Notes under the pieces: model-generated
Seen by the model: only the letters and a program-made list of their open reading frames with translations
Told to the model about the DNA's origin: nothing
Database searches by the model: none
DNA from: a virus
Lineage: Duplodnaviria; Caudoviricetes
Length of the DNA: 64,000 bases
Reading direction: 5' to 3' (one strand)
IMG/VR virus record: IMGVR_UViG_3300044676_005314
Coordinates: 7,807 to 71,806 of that record
Shown here: positions 1 to 64,000 of the stretch, one piece after another
How the letters are laid out: each line of letters begins with the position of its first letter
Numbering within the stretch: the stretch's first letter is position 1
Program-made: the position numbers and the translations under genes

Positions 1-353
1 ACCTAAAAAATCTAAAGTAATTCTTTAGATTTATCCATAAGCAATAATCTCCCCTGCTCCAATATCTCCATAGGACTAGAACGGATGTTCTAAACTCCTG
101 TGGGACTCCATTGGACGAAGGAACGACCCACCTCGTGGGTCCAACCTATCTTCCAACTAGGTTCTCCTTTAGTAAGTCGGGCTCTCTGCGAATTGCTTTG
201 ACTTACTCGCCCATTTCCACATTTCCAAAGTTTTATTCTTTGTACTGTGCTTGGTATTCAGTGGGGGCTTTTCCTAACATTGCAAGTACTTTTCCCACCT
301 GCTCCAATTTTATTTCGCTCTCTCCTTTTATGGTTTAATCAATTTATATATAT

Positions 354-8278: not shown

Positions 8279-8463
8279 GTATATACCACTATATTTAGTA
8301 TGTTTTTTGACACCACTATATATTGTGTAGTTCAGTTTTGACACTACCGTAGTATGATTCTGACACTACTGTAGTATGAATTTGAGACTACCGTAGTACC
8401 GCTGATGACACTATAACTATACTAATATAACTAGACATATTAACTATAAGAATATAACTATTT
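8279..8463 (+). repeat. left copy of an inverted repeat of at least 185 bp (origin-like)
   Basis: reverse complement of 63815-64000, one-T indel in a homopolymer. Confidence 0.95.
8339..8463 (+). other. iteron array plus AT-rich tract, putative replication origin
   Basis: TGA(C/G)ACTAC(C/T)GTAGTA at 8339, 8361, 8383 (22-bp period, internal ACTAC-N-GTAGT palindrome), partial copies at 8308 and 8406, then four TAACTA repeats in AT-rich DNA. Confidence 0.6.
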
Positions 8464-8620: not shown

Positions 8621-9328
8621 ATGACAAATGAAGACAATATATACGAACTTCAACCAATACAAGCTAACTTAGATGATATTAAGTCACCTATAGAGCAAGT
8701 AAAGGAAGATGGTAACATAGGCCTAAATTGGGACCAATGGATAGAATGCGTTCAATTTATGGCCATAAGATACACAAGCGGTACAGATACACCTAGTTCT
8801 TGGGGAGAAGTAAAACTAAGAGCAATGTATCAAGACCTACAATACTTTACCTATGAAGATGTTCAAAAGGCAATAATAAGACTCCACGAAGAGGGAAGAA
8901 GTTTTGCCCCGAACAGTTCACAGATTATAGGAAAGTTAAATGCATTAAATTCCCAACAGGTTATGTCAGCGTCTCAAATAGAGAGGTTGTCTAAGGGTCA
9001 GTACAGCGAATGTAAAGGTGGTGCACAGCACGAATGGGCAGATTGGGGATGGTTCTTTGATGAACAAGGATATCCAATGTTCTTAGAGGTTTGCTGTTCT
9101 ACACTAGGACCTAATATGCCTACTTGTTTAGCAGAGCGAACGAAATCAAATCCAAGCGAAGCTAACAAAAGTATGCACCCGGGTTTTCATATGACTAGAG
9201 AAAAATTCATAGAGAGTATGAAGAAGCTCAAGTTGAGTGACAAGAAACAAGATGAACTATTGGAATACAGAAACAGGCTACTCACAGAAGAAGAAGTAGC
9301 AAAATTAGGAGTTACATATGATAAGTGA
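8621..9328 (+). CDS. putative replication-associated protein (helicase loader/inhibitor-like segment plus Cys/His region)
   Basis: MYQDLQYFTYEDVQKAIIRL.EEGRSFAPNSSQI resembles the G39P/DnaB-loader-type L...y..V..A......FaP motif; lies next to the iterons. Confidence 0.4.
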   Translation: MTNEDNIYELQPIQANLDDIKSPIEQVKEDGNIGLNWDQWIECVQFMAIRYTSGTDTPSSWGEVKLRAMYQDLQYFTYEDVQKAIIRLHEEGRSFAPNSSQIIGKLNALNSQQVMSASQIERLSKGQYSECKGGAQHEWADWGWFFDEQGYPMFLEVCCSTLGPNMPTCLAERTKSNPSEANKSMHPGFHMTREKFIESMKKLKLSDKKQDELLEYRNRLLTEEEVAKLGVTYDK

Positions 9329-9986
9329 TTTTATAGACAATAATGTAAATGAAGATAAGTCGGTACCGATGTTCTACGCTATGACTTTCTACAATGATTT
9401 GAGACAACAAATCTATGACAAGAATGCAATCTTTATATTAAAAGATAAATTAGATTGGCTTGGTTACAATGGAACAAAACAAGATATGGATGAAGACTTA
9501 TGTGTTTCAGCTGTATTTGCTTATGTTGAACTTTGTATGGCCGAGCTATTGTATGAAGGTATGAGAGACATCAAGAAGATGGATGACTTATACCAAGCTA
9601 CTTACATTAGAGACCATATTCAAAAAGGATTTAAGAAGTATAAGACTTATGGGAATTGGCCCGAAGATATGAAGAAAGATACGATAAGACATTCTTTATG
9701 GAATTATGAAGATGAAGTACTAGCTATGCAAAACAGTGTTAAAAATATTTTAGCAAGTGTTATGAGAGCAGTAGGAGTAATCAATAGAGAAAAAGATAAA
9801 GTTTCTATGAACCATATGCATATGATTTATGATGAACTTTCAGAGGAACTAAAAGAAATGCCTTTACCAAAACTTATGGAAGATGTAGAAGATGATGAAA
9901 AAACTTCTCTAGATTTGATTTCATCTAGTATGTTTTCAGATAACTATATTGAAAATGTGGTTGACTTTTGTTTTAACAAGGGTTAA
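9318..9986 (+). CDS. hypothetical alpha-helical protein
   Basis: AGGAG RBS, overlaps previous stop. Confidence 0.75.
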   Translation: MISDFIDNNVNEDKSVPMFYAMTFYNDLRQQIYDKNAIFILKDKLDWLGYNGTKQDMDEDLCVSAVFAYVELCMAELLYEGMRDIKKMDDLYQATYIRDHIQKGFKKYKTYGNWPEDMKKDTIRHSLWNYEDEVLAMQNSVKNILASVMRAVGVINREKDKVSMNHMHMIYDELSEELKEMPLPKLMEDVEDDEKTSLDLISSSMFSDNYIENVVDFCFNKG

Positions 9987-9995
9987 AATTATCTT

Positions 9996-10375
9996 GCGAT
10001 AATCTTATTACATAGTAGTAAGGTTATGCAGGACAGTGCGCCTGTGGAAAATGATTCGATGGGAAGGTATTGGTTTGGACACTTGTACTATTCATTTGGG
10101 AGCAATACCCAACACAGGCACTAGGGAATCGGAAATATAACTAAATTTGTTTATGTACGGATTTAAATACTAAATGTAGTGTATTAGTAAAAGTTATAAT
10201 TAGATTCCCTTATTTTTACCCTCACACATTATTTAGATAATGATGAATAAGTATTAGTTAGTGAGGTGAAACGGCGAGCAATTGAGAGGGTATAATGGAA
10301 ATGTCGGTGGATAACTAGCAATAGTTGTCCCTTTGCCGATACCCTCCCATCGTCGGCTCTCTTAGGAGAGCCGTA
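9996..10375 (+). ncRNA. putative large structured ncRNA (RNA-E, about 380 nt)
   Basis: TTGACT(9961)-17-TAAAAT; at least six helices, including GGATAACTA-GCAA-TAGTTGTCC and a terminal CGGCTCTC/GAGAGCCG. Confidence 0.6.
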
Positions 10376-10411
10376 TCTAAAATGACTTTACAAAATTTTT
10401 TTTACTTTGAC

Positions 10412-10440
10412 TTGACAAACTAAATATACTATGGCATACT
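10412..10440 (+). promoter_or_regulatory. sigma70-type promoter
   Basis: TTGACA-17-CATACT with TGG. Confidence 0.8.
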
Positions 10441-10474
10441 TAATATATAACGATTAGAAAGGTAGGTATAACCT

Positions 10475-10702
10475 ATGGATTACGATATTAAAGATAGAAT
10501 CATTTCAGAAACAATGTCTGAATATGAAGATATTGACATTAAAAGAACTACAAATGGATTATCTGTAGAAATCCATTTCTCTAGTGACGTAACTAAAGAT
10601 GAAGCAATTGCTTGGTTTGAAGATACTTTATCAAAAGTAGAAAGCCAAAGTTTTTTAAGAGCAAGTCTTGATTTATGGATTACCCCAAAGGAGGAAGTAT
10701 GA
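10475..10702 (+). CDS. hypothetical protein
   Basis: RBS, first gene of a coupled chain. Confidence 0.7.
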   Translation: MDYDIKDRIISETMSEYEDIDIKRTTNGLSVEIHFSSDVTKDEAIAWFEDTLSKVESQSFLRASLDLWITPKEEV

Positions 10703-12851: not shown

Positions 12852-14111
12852 ATGTCTAGAGATATACTTGAATCAGTAGCTTCAGAACAAGAACAAGTTT
12901 TTGACTTAGAATTTCCAGACCTTCACGAAGCTCAGCAAACGGTAAGAGATGACCCCGCACGTTGGAAAATACTTTGTGCAGGCCGTCGTTTCGGTAAATC
13001 ACGACTTGGAGTACAACTTTGTTTAGAAGAAGCACTCAAAGGTGGCCGTGTTTGGTGGGTAGCACCTACTTTCGCTATTGCTAGAGTTGGTTGGAGAGAT
13101 GTGGTAGCTGCAGCAAATGAGTTTCCAAAAGAAGCAGGCGTAGATGTACGCATTGGTGATATGGAAGTTAAATTTCCCGGCGGCGGTTCTATAGCAGTTA
13201 AATCTGCCGATAACCCTCAGCGTCTTAGAGGTGAAGGTTTGAACTATCTAGTTATGGATGAGGCCGCATTCGTTAGAGAAGAAACTTGGACAGAAGTATT
13301 AAGGCCTACACTTACAGAAAACAAAGGTTCTGCATTATTCATAAGCACCCCTATAGGAATGGACAATTGGTTTTTTCATTTATGGGAGAAAGCAGATAAA
13401 GCTGATGATTGGGCTAGATTTCAATTTCCTACAGTAGCTAATCCTATTATTGACCCTGCTGAAGTTGAATCAGCTAGAGAAGACTTAGGTGAATTAGTAT
13501 TCGCTCAAGAGTATCTTGCAGAGTTTATATCTGAAGGTGCTCAGATGTTTAGAAGTCATTGGTTTAACTATTACAAACTTGGTGTAGGAACACTTTGGTG
13601 TGAAGGTGAAAAATTTGACATAAATAATGATTTAGTAAAGTTTGCTACAGTAGACTTAGCAGCATCAACAAAAGAATCAGCTGACTACACAGTCATATCA
13701 GTATTTGGTTACCATATGCAATCAGACAGATTGTTTATGATTGATATGATTAGAGACAGACTTGAAGCACCCGACATTGTACCTCAAATAAAAAGAGCAA
13801 TAGGTATTCATAATCTTGAATGGGTTGGAATTGAAAAAACAGGATACCAATTAGCTATAGTTCAGTTTGCTAGAAGAGAAGGTCTCAGAATCAAAGAATT
13901 AAGGGCTGACAAAGACAAGCGTTCACGAGCACTTCCTTTGTCTGCTAAGATGGAAAGAGGACTTGTATATTTTCCTCAAAATGAGGAATGGGTAGGTGAA
14001 GTTGAGAGAGAGCTCTTAACTTTCCCTGTAGGTACTCACGATGATATCGTGGATACTCTTGCCTATGCTTGTCTTAGTAGCGGAACGAAAAGAAAATGGG
14101 AAGCATTTTAA
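12852..14111 (+). CDS. terL: terminase large subunit (leaderless)
   Basis: Walker A AGRRFGKS, Walker B LVMDEAAF, nuclease motifs VDLA..DYT and HDDIVDTLAY; TATAAT 6 nt before ATG. Confidence 0.97.
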   Translation: MSRDILESVASEQEQVFDLEFPDLHEAQQTVRDDPARWKILCAGRRFGKSRLGVQLCLEEALKGGRVWWVAPTFAIARVGWRDVVAAANEFPKEAGVDVRIGDMEVKFPGGGSIAVKSADNPQRLRGEGLNYLVMDEAAFVREETWTEVLRPTLTENKGSALFISTPIGMDNWFFHLWEKADKADDWARFQFPTVANPIIDPAEVESAREDLGELVFAQEYLAEFISEGAQMFRSHWFNYYKLGVGTLWCEGEKFDINNDLVKFATVDLAASTKESADYTVISVFGYHMQSDRLFMIDMIRDRLEAPDIVPQIKRAIGIHNLEWVGIEKTGYQLAIVQFARREGLRIKELRADKDKRSRALPLSAKMERGLVYFPQNEEWVGEVERELLTFPVGTHDDIVDTLAYACLSSGTKRKWEAF

Positions 14112-63814: not shown

Positions 63815-64000
63815 AAATAGTTATATTCTTATAGTTAATATGTCTAGTTATATTAGTATAGTTATAGTGTCATCAGCGGTACTACGGTAGTCTCAAATTC
63901 ATACTACAGTAGTGTCAGAATCATACTACGGTAGTGTCAAAACTGAACTACACAATATATAGTGGTGTCAAAAAAACATACTAAATATAGTGGTATATAC
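63815..64000 (-). repeat. right copy of the inverted repeat (truncated by the window end)
   Basis: reverse complement of 8279-8463 including all iterons. Confidence 0.95.

Follow-up and report, generated by a model that had tools for sequence, protein, structure and literature searches.

The window analysed here is a stretch of 64,000 nucleotides (nt), positions 7807-71806 of an IMG/VR virus record 71.8 kb in length. Among the products of this record are portal, major head, tape-measure and tail proteins and a large terminase (12852-14111), and from this set we assign it to a tailed phage. The element of interest, RNA-E, lies in a 488-nt gap (9987-10474) between plus-strand open reading frames (ORFs) at 9318-9986 and 10475-10702. 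Coordinates refer to the window, and RNA-E and its promoters are on the plus strand. RNA-E is about 390 nt long, from about 9992-9997 to at least 10385, and is a member of a conserved composite non-coding RNA (ncRNA) family in one syntenic lineage of uncultured marine and estuarine tailed phages.

A conserved RNA family with a universal 3' core

The upstream protein led to three related contigs carrying RNA-E. Exact-word scans and an nhmmer profile gave 41 viral loci, and a metagenome scan that included Tara Oceans assemblies gave 57 more. Together these loci comprise 68 distinct full sequences and 49 distinct cores. All of them share one gene order: c1 (8621-9328 in the window), c0 (9318-9986), the RNA, a strong promoter, small variable genes, c2, the large terminase and the portal. 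Outside the closest relatives, identity to the proteins of the window is 16-41% for c0 and 38-52% for c1.

Family members range from 165 to 470 nt. The minimal class d (~165 nt) begins right after the upstream stop codon and consists of a hairpin with the word UGYGGGACAG, a CAG-GCAA-CUG hairpin and the core. Classes a-c, to which the window belongs, insert a tRNA-like unit, a three-way-junction domain and a further hairpin domain between these parts.

RNA-E is in no curated RNA family. Rfam 15, whose models include HEARO/omega RNA, group I and II introns, RNase P, GOLLD, ROOL, C4, T-box and riboswitches, gave no hit at gathering score in the window, 13 family loci, the L159 sequence or the upstream 7.9 kb. 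Scans of four stretches at E <= 10 returned only unrelated low-scoring hits and no family for RNA-E. The novelty proposed in a first-pass annotation of the sequence thus holds against Rfam. ARAGORN called no tRNA or transfer-messenger RNA (tmRNA) in the window, 19 family loci or L159. We also considered a prophage, attachment-site or host copy. The 18-mer of the core has 11 hits in 185,579 species genomes, all in GC-rich unrelated DNA and close in number to the estimate from the size of the collection. Since every one of them lacks the hairpin that follows the core in RNA-E, we conclude that there is no such copy.

The conserved heart of RNA-E is its 3' ~130 nt, which the first-pass annotation overlooked as a unit. 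In an alignment of the 49 distinct copies (alignment A5), the universal core (10272-10385) is built from five helices. P_a pairs CGGCGA (10272-10277) with TCGTCG (10350-10355), P_b pairs GAGGGTA (10286-10292) with TACCCTC (10340-10346), which is followed by an unpaired CCA (10347-10349), and P_c pairs TCGGT (10304-10308) with GCCGA (10335-10339). P_d is a GCAA-loop stem (10309-10330), P_e is a final hairpin, GGCTCTC-TTAG-GAGAGCC (10355-10372), and the tail GTATCTAAAATGA occupies 10373-10385. Paired cells make up 93.6% of the core; shuffles give 85.1%, none of 500 reaches the observed level, and the value falls to ~40% when the partners are slid against each other. Covariation extends to each of the nine pairs of P_d, the GNRA-capped stem. 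At the base of P_e, 27 cores have A-U, 21 have G-C and one has G-U, and P_c is topped by U-G, C-G or U-A. P_b shows no variation, and the only changes in P_a are wobbles and a register shift of one base.

A 19-nt block within the core, CGATACCCTCCCATCGTCG (10337-10355), is identical in 49 of 49 distinct cores. Part of this invariance could stem from the way the loci were found, because the search words lay in or beside the block. The metagenome search word needed only the last 8 bases of the block, and a second probe, which combined the following hairpin with the last 4 bases of the block, returned exactly the same set of 37 viral loci. As judged from sequence, the 19-nt invariance, set against identities of only 16-50% in the neighbouring proteins, implies a very tight constraint, such as catalysis, or contact with a host machine that is itself conserved, may impose. 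On the 3' strand, P_c (5 bp) runs directly into P_b (7 bp), the unpaired CCA comes next, and P_a pairs the flanks. In our model, the stack of P_b and P_c may thus resemble the acceptor/T minihelix of a pre-tRNA with paired leader and trailer, that is, an RNase P-type substrate.

A contig of depth 364 from the DNA run X9, aligned to window positions 10343-10379, shares only the 37-nt heart of the core, with 2 differences. Its flanks are unrelated, GTCGGATTCCACACCGACCT stands just upstream, and the variant core reads GACCTCCTCCCATCGTCG. An exact 18-base scan of IMG/VR viral contigs, the only collection scanned, returned no match to this variant. The X9 contig indicates that more divergent lineages with the core exist.

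RNA-E as a whole folds far better than expected from its composition. The plus-strand minimum free energy is -127.1 kcal/mol, compared with -92.5 +/- 5.2 kcal/mol for dinucleotide shuffles (z = -6.7, 0 of 100 as good), and the minus-strand fold has a z of -5.1. The frequent G-U pairs would turn into A-C mismatches if the opposite strand were the RNA, which identifies the plus strand as the one that is read. RNA-E is a genuine plus-strand structured ncRNA, as the first-pass annotation proposed: it has compensatory changes, strand-specific G-U pairs, GNRA and UUCG loops, and indels that break the frames of small ORFs. Every helix word listed in that annotation is present in the window, and covariation among homologues backs the plus-strand helices with one exception, described below. 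Double changes occur in P1, the acceptor, the T arm and the GGGA helix among 11 class-a sequences.

From the 5' end, RNAalifold on these 11 sequences predicts P1 (9992-10033), a hairpin TCTTGC...GCAGGA that closes an inner stem-loop and shows changes on both sides, for example at alignment columns 22/46, 25/43 and 28/40. The conserved word GCRGGACAG (10028-10036) recurs in most subclasses, at a variable position relative to the tRNA-like unit. Downstream of that unit, the three-way-junction domain (10121-10212) is closed by the outer helix CTAGGGAATC/GATTCCC, in which the GGGAATC (10124-10130) and GATTCCC (10203-10209) of the first-pass annotation are found. Compensatory variants support this domain, and its GGGA outer helix exists in at least seven compensatory versions across the classes. 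Its inner helix pairs TATAACT (10136-10142) with AGTTATA (10192-10198), and the domain also holds the conserved word TAAATGTAGTG (10171-10181).

The hairpin domain (10218-10267) pairs ACCCTCAC with GTGAGGT, which includes the previously noted CCTCAC (10220-10225) and GTGAGG (10261-10266), and closes on the palindrome CATTATT-TAG-ATAATG (10227-10242). Among class-a relatives the stem is rewritten yet stays paired, as CCATCCC/GGGGTGG, TTGTACC/GGTGCAA or TCCTAAG/CTTAGGG. In 35 of 35 family sequences having the palindrome (CATTATT-NNN-ATAATG), the loop is TAA, TGA or TAG and never TGG. The absence of TGG is not statistically significant. This stop codon recalls that of tmRNA helix 5. A tag-like frame stopping at it is not conserved, and two small ORFs within 10027-10140 are broken by a 1-nt indel in the relative L004. 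The word TACCCTC occurs twice (10217-10223 and 10340-10346), giving GAGGGTA at 10286-10292 a second possible partner. This duplicate is present only in the close relatives of the window.

The tRNA-like unit, the long-range pairing and transcription

A geometry script and covariation delineate an 81-nt tRNA/tmRNA-like unit at 10040-10120 that the first-pass annotation had not recognized. Its 7-bp acceptor pairs GCCTGTG (10040-10046) with CACAGGC (10113-10119) and encloses 49 nt and a T-arm-like hairpin with a 5-bp stem and a 7-nt loop, TTGGG-AGCAATA-CCCAA (10096-10112), which abuts the 3' strand of the acceptor. This is the acceptor/T-arm geometry of tRNA with no anticodon arm. The acceptor is followed by one variable base (N73, the discriminator A10120 in the window) and a conserved CUAGGGA. 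Across the family, the script finds seven unrelated, perfectly paired acceptor sequences, and the unit measures 78-82 nt in two classes. Covariation is seen in both acceptor and T arm.

The unit reshapes two helices of the earlier annotation. Its first helix, AGTGCGCCTGTG (10035-10046) with CACAGGCACT (10113-10122), survives as the 7-bp acceptor, and the outer AGTG/CACT pairs are lost in relatives such as L004. The helix GGTATTG (10066-10072)/CAATACC (10104-10110) is present in the window as a pair of complementary words. We replace it with the T arm, because it shows no covariation, is broken in the relative L012 and overlaps the covarying hairpin.

Some relatives come closer to tmRNA. The units of L015, L023 and L028 have G1-C72, G2-C71, G3.U70 and A73, that is, tmRNA/alanine identity, and the near-identical copies L053 and L131 likewise have G3.U70 and A73. 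L028 has UUCGAUU as its T loop, and L015 and L023 share UGCAAAU. The 3' half of the L023 and L028 units lies a few positions off the Rfam tmRNA consensus (~15 bits, E ~6e-4, in truncated alignments). The body of the window's own unit carries GATTCGATGGGA and GAUUCGAUGGGA, which resemble the tmRNA 5' word GGAUUCGACGGGA of the E. coli sequence and of the consensus line of the tmRNA model. We found no mRNA-like domain with a resume codon, tag frame, stop and pseudoknots: only 49 nt lie between acceptor and T arm, and the downstream frames are unconserved.

A geometry scan of the whole record also identified a gene that resembles the tRNA-like domain (TLD) of tmRNA and nothing more (G000:C1:7213-7293, equal to L159 7213-7293; window -593 to -513, outside the window). 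This TLD-only gene is placed 2.8 kb upstream of the gene pair and reads GGGGCUA...GGGGGUUCGACUCCCCC-UAGCUCC-A, with G3.U70, A73 and no encoded CCA. The tmRNA model, with its 280-nt middle skipped, aligns along the full length of the gene at 36-45 bits (E 1e-13 to 4e-18), and for this reason we consider that the phage has a TLD-only tmRNA-like gene. Its best score (44.9 bits, E 3.7e-18) falls just below the 47-bit threshold, and a tmRNA search of the phage's own genome finds only this gene. ARAGORN does not call it, and the mascRNA model matches it faintly (14.7 bits). Directly after this gene begins the first of two ~70%-alike elements of the form AATCTCCCCTGYTCCAA...GAACRNATGTTCTAAA (L159 7307-7355 and 7851-7899, the second at window 45-93). 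A short-word BLAST did not link them, and their similarity is weak.

Inside the tRNA-like unit of RNA-E, a G-rich segment, CGATGGGAAGGTA (10057-10069), is, as the first-pass annotation described, complementary to 10340-10352 in the core at 12 of 13 positions; A10065/C10344 is the sole mismatch. The distal duplex has a z of about -3.9 (0 of 100 shuffles as good). The local fold, at -122.0 kcal/mol, and the fold with 12 distal pairs forced, at -121.0 kcal/mol, are only ~1 kcal/mol apart. In the modelled ensemble the local fold has a probability of ~0.9 in the window, and the distal fold dominates (0.7-0.9) in L004, L013, L048, L104, L125, L126, L143, L023, L028 and L111. The G-rich segment is invariant in class a except in L093. 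Non-random G-rich complements, differing in sequence and position and usually in the body of the tRNA-like unit, occur in class a (z ~-4), class c (~-3), the L028 type (~-2) and L111. The two mutually exclusive folds of the first-pass annotation are therefore near-isoenergetic in the model and thermodynamically reasonable for the subclass of the window, but the distal helix is absent in several other subclasses, and competing folds are not a defining property of the family.

A sigma-70-type promoter-like sequence, TTGACT-17-TAAAAT (9961-9989; 10 of 12 matches), precedes RNA-E with a predicted start at about 9995-9997. Both hexamers are kept in class-a relatives, and the -10 element is TATAAT in L013 and L012. 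The claim that RNA-E has its own promoter thus stands for the window and its subclass and fails elsewhere: no equivalent was found in classes c and d, where the RNA starts right after the stop codon of the upstream ORF. The separate promoter proposed for the next gene is well founded. TTGACA-17-TG-CATACT (10412-10440) is not part of the RNA and always follows it, and a strong promoter is found in every relative checked, for example with 10-11 of 12 matches and an extended TG in L011, L027 and L037. It lies 12 to ~45 nt from the core.

RNA data were available as Logan contigs. In an estuary metatranscriptome (RNA library X19), a 430-nt contig of depth 5.7 covers 9713-10120 and then runs into the Illumina adapter; its insert must therefore stop either at the last acceptor base, C10119, or at the discriminator, A10120. 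This is the end that an RNase Z-type cut would leave. Because it is a single observation from a library that may hold DNA, we treat it as a hint. The contig reaches from the last part of the upstream gene into the 5' part of RNA-E, suggesting that read-through transcription also feeds RNA-E. RNA runs X20 and X21 gave no coverage of RNA-E and are uninformative on its expression.

Possible functions of RNA-E

We tentatively favour a reading, still somewhat short of probable, in which RNA-E is a processed composite phage RNA that uses host tRNA/tmRNA-handling enzymes and joins the tRNA-like unit to an effector core. Starting from the observed structure, conservation and family membership, processing, decoy action and switching would proceed as follows. 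Transcripts would arise from the RNA's own promoter or from upstream read-through. Host RNase P would cut at about 10039/10040 and an RNase Z-type enzyme after A10120, releasing a ~80-nt tRNA-like RNA and a ~265-nt 3' RNA with the core. The TLD-resembling tRNA-like piece would probably engage tRNA/tmRNA-handling factors, for example by the SmpB titration proposed for TLD-only RNAs. Its G-rich body could form a duplex, in cis or in trans, with the C-rich strand that never varies in the core, so that the RNA would switch between an open state, with core and tRNA-like unit folded, and a closed state held by the long-range helix. The core would be the effector.

Several observations weigh against this account. 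The unit of the window has G1-C72, C2-G71, C3-G70 and A73, followed by CUA and not CCA, and thus does not have alanine identity, and its T loop AGCAATA is non-canonical (compared with UUCGAAU). Positions 10025-10135 gave no hit to the tmRNA (RF00023, threshold 47 bits) or tRNA (RF00005) models even at E 10. ARAGORN does not call the unit, and it does not form a cloverleaf with D and anticodon arms. Since the minimal members of class d do without the unit, it is an accessory and uninformative about what the core does. The L011 and L041 types lack the distal complement, as do most of class d and with them the minimal ~165-nt form, and L093 carries an uncompensated change. Covariation cannot test the distal helix, because its 3' strand never varies. 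Within the core, P_a and P_b are nearly invariant, so their pairing rests on few wobble changes. The minihelix resemblance may be due to chance, because CCA directly follows the 7-bp stem with no discriminator base. RNA evidence for cleavage is limited to the one 5.7x contig from X19, and no SmpB gene was found in the phage.

A more far-reaching proposal, to which we give a rather low probability, holds that the core and its detachable tmRNA-like unit form a new phage effector RNA directed against the ribosome-rescue or tRNA-maturation machinery of the host. It could work as a two-piece tmRNA-like particle joined by a duplex similar to helix 2, or as a duplex-switched decoy or inhibitor, with ~50 invariant nt contacting a universally conserved host component.

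Among the alternatives to the favoured processed composite RNA, a cis-acting boundary element survives best, and we consider it possible if unlikely. As an attenuator or insulator, a bistable RNA would govern whether transcription or RNA stability extends from the unit upstream, the G39P-like gene with its neighbour, into the next operon, and the tRNA-like element would be a cleavage point that uncouples the two. RNA-E always sits between the end of a gene block and a strong promoter, in classes c and d it begins immediately at the stop codon upstream, the model predicts two near-isoenergetic folds, and the X19 contig bridges the upstream gene and the RNA, all of which suits such a role. However, no intrinsic terminator was found after the core, where the tail GTATCYAAAAT has no U run, and with a consensus promoter downstream the control of read-through would matter little. 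The ~50 invariant nt go far beyond what an attenuator needs, and the alternative helix is absent in the minimal class.

It is improbable that RNA-E is a self-contained large RNA in the manner of GOLLD and ROOL, that is, a ribozyme, protein scaffold or multimer with the core as its active or assembling part and the long-range pairing possibly intermolecular. A layout of several domains, variable in the 5' half and conserved in the 3' half and adjoining tRNA-like elements, would fit, as would the GNRA loops and the extreme invariance seen in catalytic or tertiary-contact cores, and the RNA is phage-borne and abundant in estuary DNA runs. Yet no match to GOLLD, ROOL, HEARO, group I or II introns, RNase P or self-cleaving ribozymes was obtained even at E 10, no pseudoknot or tertiary contact is backed by covariation, and the minimal form is only ~165 nt.

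The neighbouring proteins bear on a third alternative. AlphaFold models of c1 and the all-helical c0 have pLDDT values of 80 and 84, respectively. Neither protein has a match in Pfam, PHROG or PDB sequences, and Foldseek with both models returned nothing. In an exhaustive VIA alignment, residues 35-104 of c1 fit the N-domain of the SPP1 G39P helicase loader (Z 8.7, r.m.s.d. 1.9 Å, 67 of 67 residues); among the matches listed, the next has a Z of 6.9 and DnaD domains score lower. A separate language-model lead for c1 pointed to the lambda P and G39P families, in agreement with this match. c1, which no sequence family matches, also carries an invariant set of Cys and His residues (C131, H137, C158, C169) that suggests a zinc site. 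Because of the G39P-like c1 and a block of iteron-like repeats at 8279-8463, RNA-E lies beside a possible replication module, and we hence retained an origin-associated primer or R-loop RNA as an explanation. Its alternative folds would decide whether the G- or C-rich segment engages with DNA, in the manner of ColE1 RNA II, and the RNA's own promoter, the AT-rich tract downstream and the mutually exclusive folds are compatible with this. We nevertheless judge it quite improbable. The G39P-like match covers one small helical domain, and Z values below ~13 are common for helical folds. GNRA hairpins, a tRNA-like unit and a 3' hairpin are foreign to known primer RNAs, and two genes separate the core from the iteron block.

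A rearranged two-piece tmRNA-like system is very doubtful. After the cut at A10120, a 13-bp helix would hold the two pieces together as the counterpart of tmRNA helix 2, and the particle would act on stalled ribosomes. The G-rich strand does follow GAUUCGA, exactly where tmRNA helix 2 starts, the L023 and L028 units might take alanine once CCA were added, and UAA, UAG or UGA in the palindromic hairpin loop of the 35 sequences is reminiscent of tmRNA helix 5. Against this stand the lack of a conserved tag frame, with indels that are not multiples of three and residues that are unconserved, the statistical weakness of the missing UGG and the lack of alanine identity in the unit of the window; class d has no tRNA-like unit, and there are no pseudoknots.

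A DNA-level site (cos/pac, recombination hot spot or protein-binding palindrome) would match the perfect conservation over ~20-50 bp beside the packaging gene block, the palindromic P_e and the tendency of contigs to break near the region, but it is disfavoured and scarcely credible given compensatory changes in at least five helices, G-U pairs on one strand only, GNRA/UUCG loops and an 18-mer core that never occurs with the hairpin in the species genomes, and thus is no attachment site.

Genomic surroundings, known counterparts and meaning

No cultured phage has a large terminase more than 27% identical to the one encoded here. DNA near-identical to that of the window is present in many estuary metagenomes. 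A paralogue search found no second copy of RNA-E in its own genome. GenBank phages gave no DNA match to RNA-E, a megablast with 12 kb was also empty, and tblastn of the upstream protein against GenBank phages returned no match. The sole GenBank phage matches are Staphylococcus Kayvirus, over the downstream promoter and not the RNA: window 10381-10450 is ~80% identical over 70 nt to their early-promoter regions. This looks like a shared promoter/UP-element consensus rather than relatedness.

A 186-bp inverted repeat (8279-8463 and 63815-64000, 99.5% identity) has its left copy in the iteron-like block, near which related contigs often begin, and its right copy runs off the record. Past the contig end there could be an inverted second copy of the early region left of 8279, or the assembly could break there. 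The left part of the record (window -7800 to 8620) has many ORF-free gaps of 300-1000 nt among small genes, and the first-pass annotation names four more candidate RNAs there.

Small regulatory RNAs with tRNA-like features have precedents in phages. The C4 RNA of P1 and P7 and the CI RNA of P4 are small phage regulators that RNase P cuts from a longer transcript and that pair with targets on it. RNA-E is similar in that a small tRNA-like RNA lies within a phage transcript and exposes a segment complementary to a site further along. It differs in giving no hit to the Rfam C4 model and in having an invariant structured core as its target, not a ribosome-binding site or terminator, and its complementarity is absent in some subclasses. 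GOLLD combines a 3' part that is conserved with a 5' part that varies, close to tRNA-type elements. Like GOLLD and ROOL, RNA-E is phage-encoded and multi-domain, whereas it is smaller (165-470 nt), matches neither model and has a different core.

The tRNA-like units of the MALAT1/MEN-beta mascRNA and the tRNA-like-miRNA transcripts of gammaherpesvirus 68 are likewise part of longer ncRNAs with structured RNA following. They are non-chargeable cutting points for RNase P and RNase Z, and the RNA-E fragment end falls at the discriminator in one contig. These are eukaryotic and viral nuclear systems without homology to RNA-E, for which such processing is our proposal.

The closest counterparts are the TLDs of tmRNA. 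A TLD-only tmRNA gene is listed for mycobacteriophage DS6A, and a similar molecule is noted to inhibit tmRNA strongly, perhaps through SmpB titration (Hudson, Lau, Williams, PMC4131195). The RNA-E unit and the DS6A TLD-only tmRNA or tmRNA TLDs (RF00023) share a phage-borne 7-bp acceptor on a T arm and lack an anticodon arm. The acceptor is followed by a GAUUCGA-type word, L023 and L028 add G3.U70, A73 and a near-consensus 3' half, and the phage has a TLD-only gene in its own genome. In contrast, the unit of the window has C3-G70, a divergent T loop, no encoded CCA and no tmRNA-model hit. Unlike tmRNA, the unit is embedded, with ~265 nt of conserved structure following it and neither tag frame nor pseudoknots.

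A published IMG/VR catalogue (PMC10690425) lists 10,006 candidate structured RNAs; they are anonymous, covarying and intergenic, come from uncultured phages and in some cases resemble tRNA. It draws on the same data source and concerns the same kind of object as RNA-E, but it describes no composite of a tRNA-like unit and an invariant core. The RNA-E family may be anonymous among these candidates and is probably uncurated. With 49 distinct cores and clear covariation, it is ready material for a new curated RNA family, and the core is a good target for study whatever its role.

Phages with RNA-E occur in Tara Oceans and in many estuary samples. If the processed composite RNA that we favour is correct, widespread ocean and estuary phages would carry a dedicated RNA that plugs into the tRNA/tmRNA processing and ribosome rescue of their hosts. 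Bacteria would then provide a natural case of a functional RNA to which a tRNA-like cutting handle is fused, and a further RNA-based means of host takeover would join phage tRNAs and the one TLD-only tmRNA reported so far.

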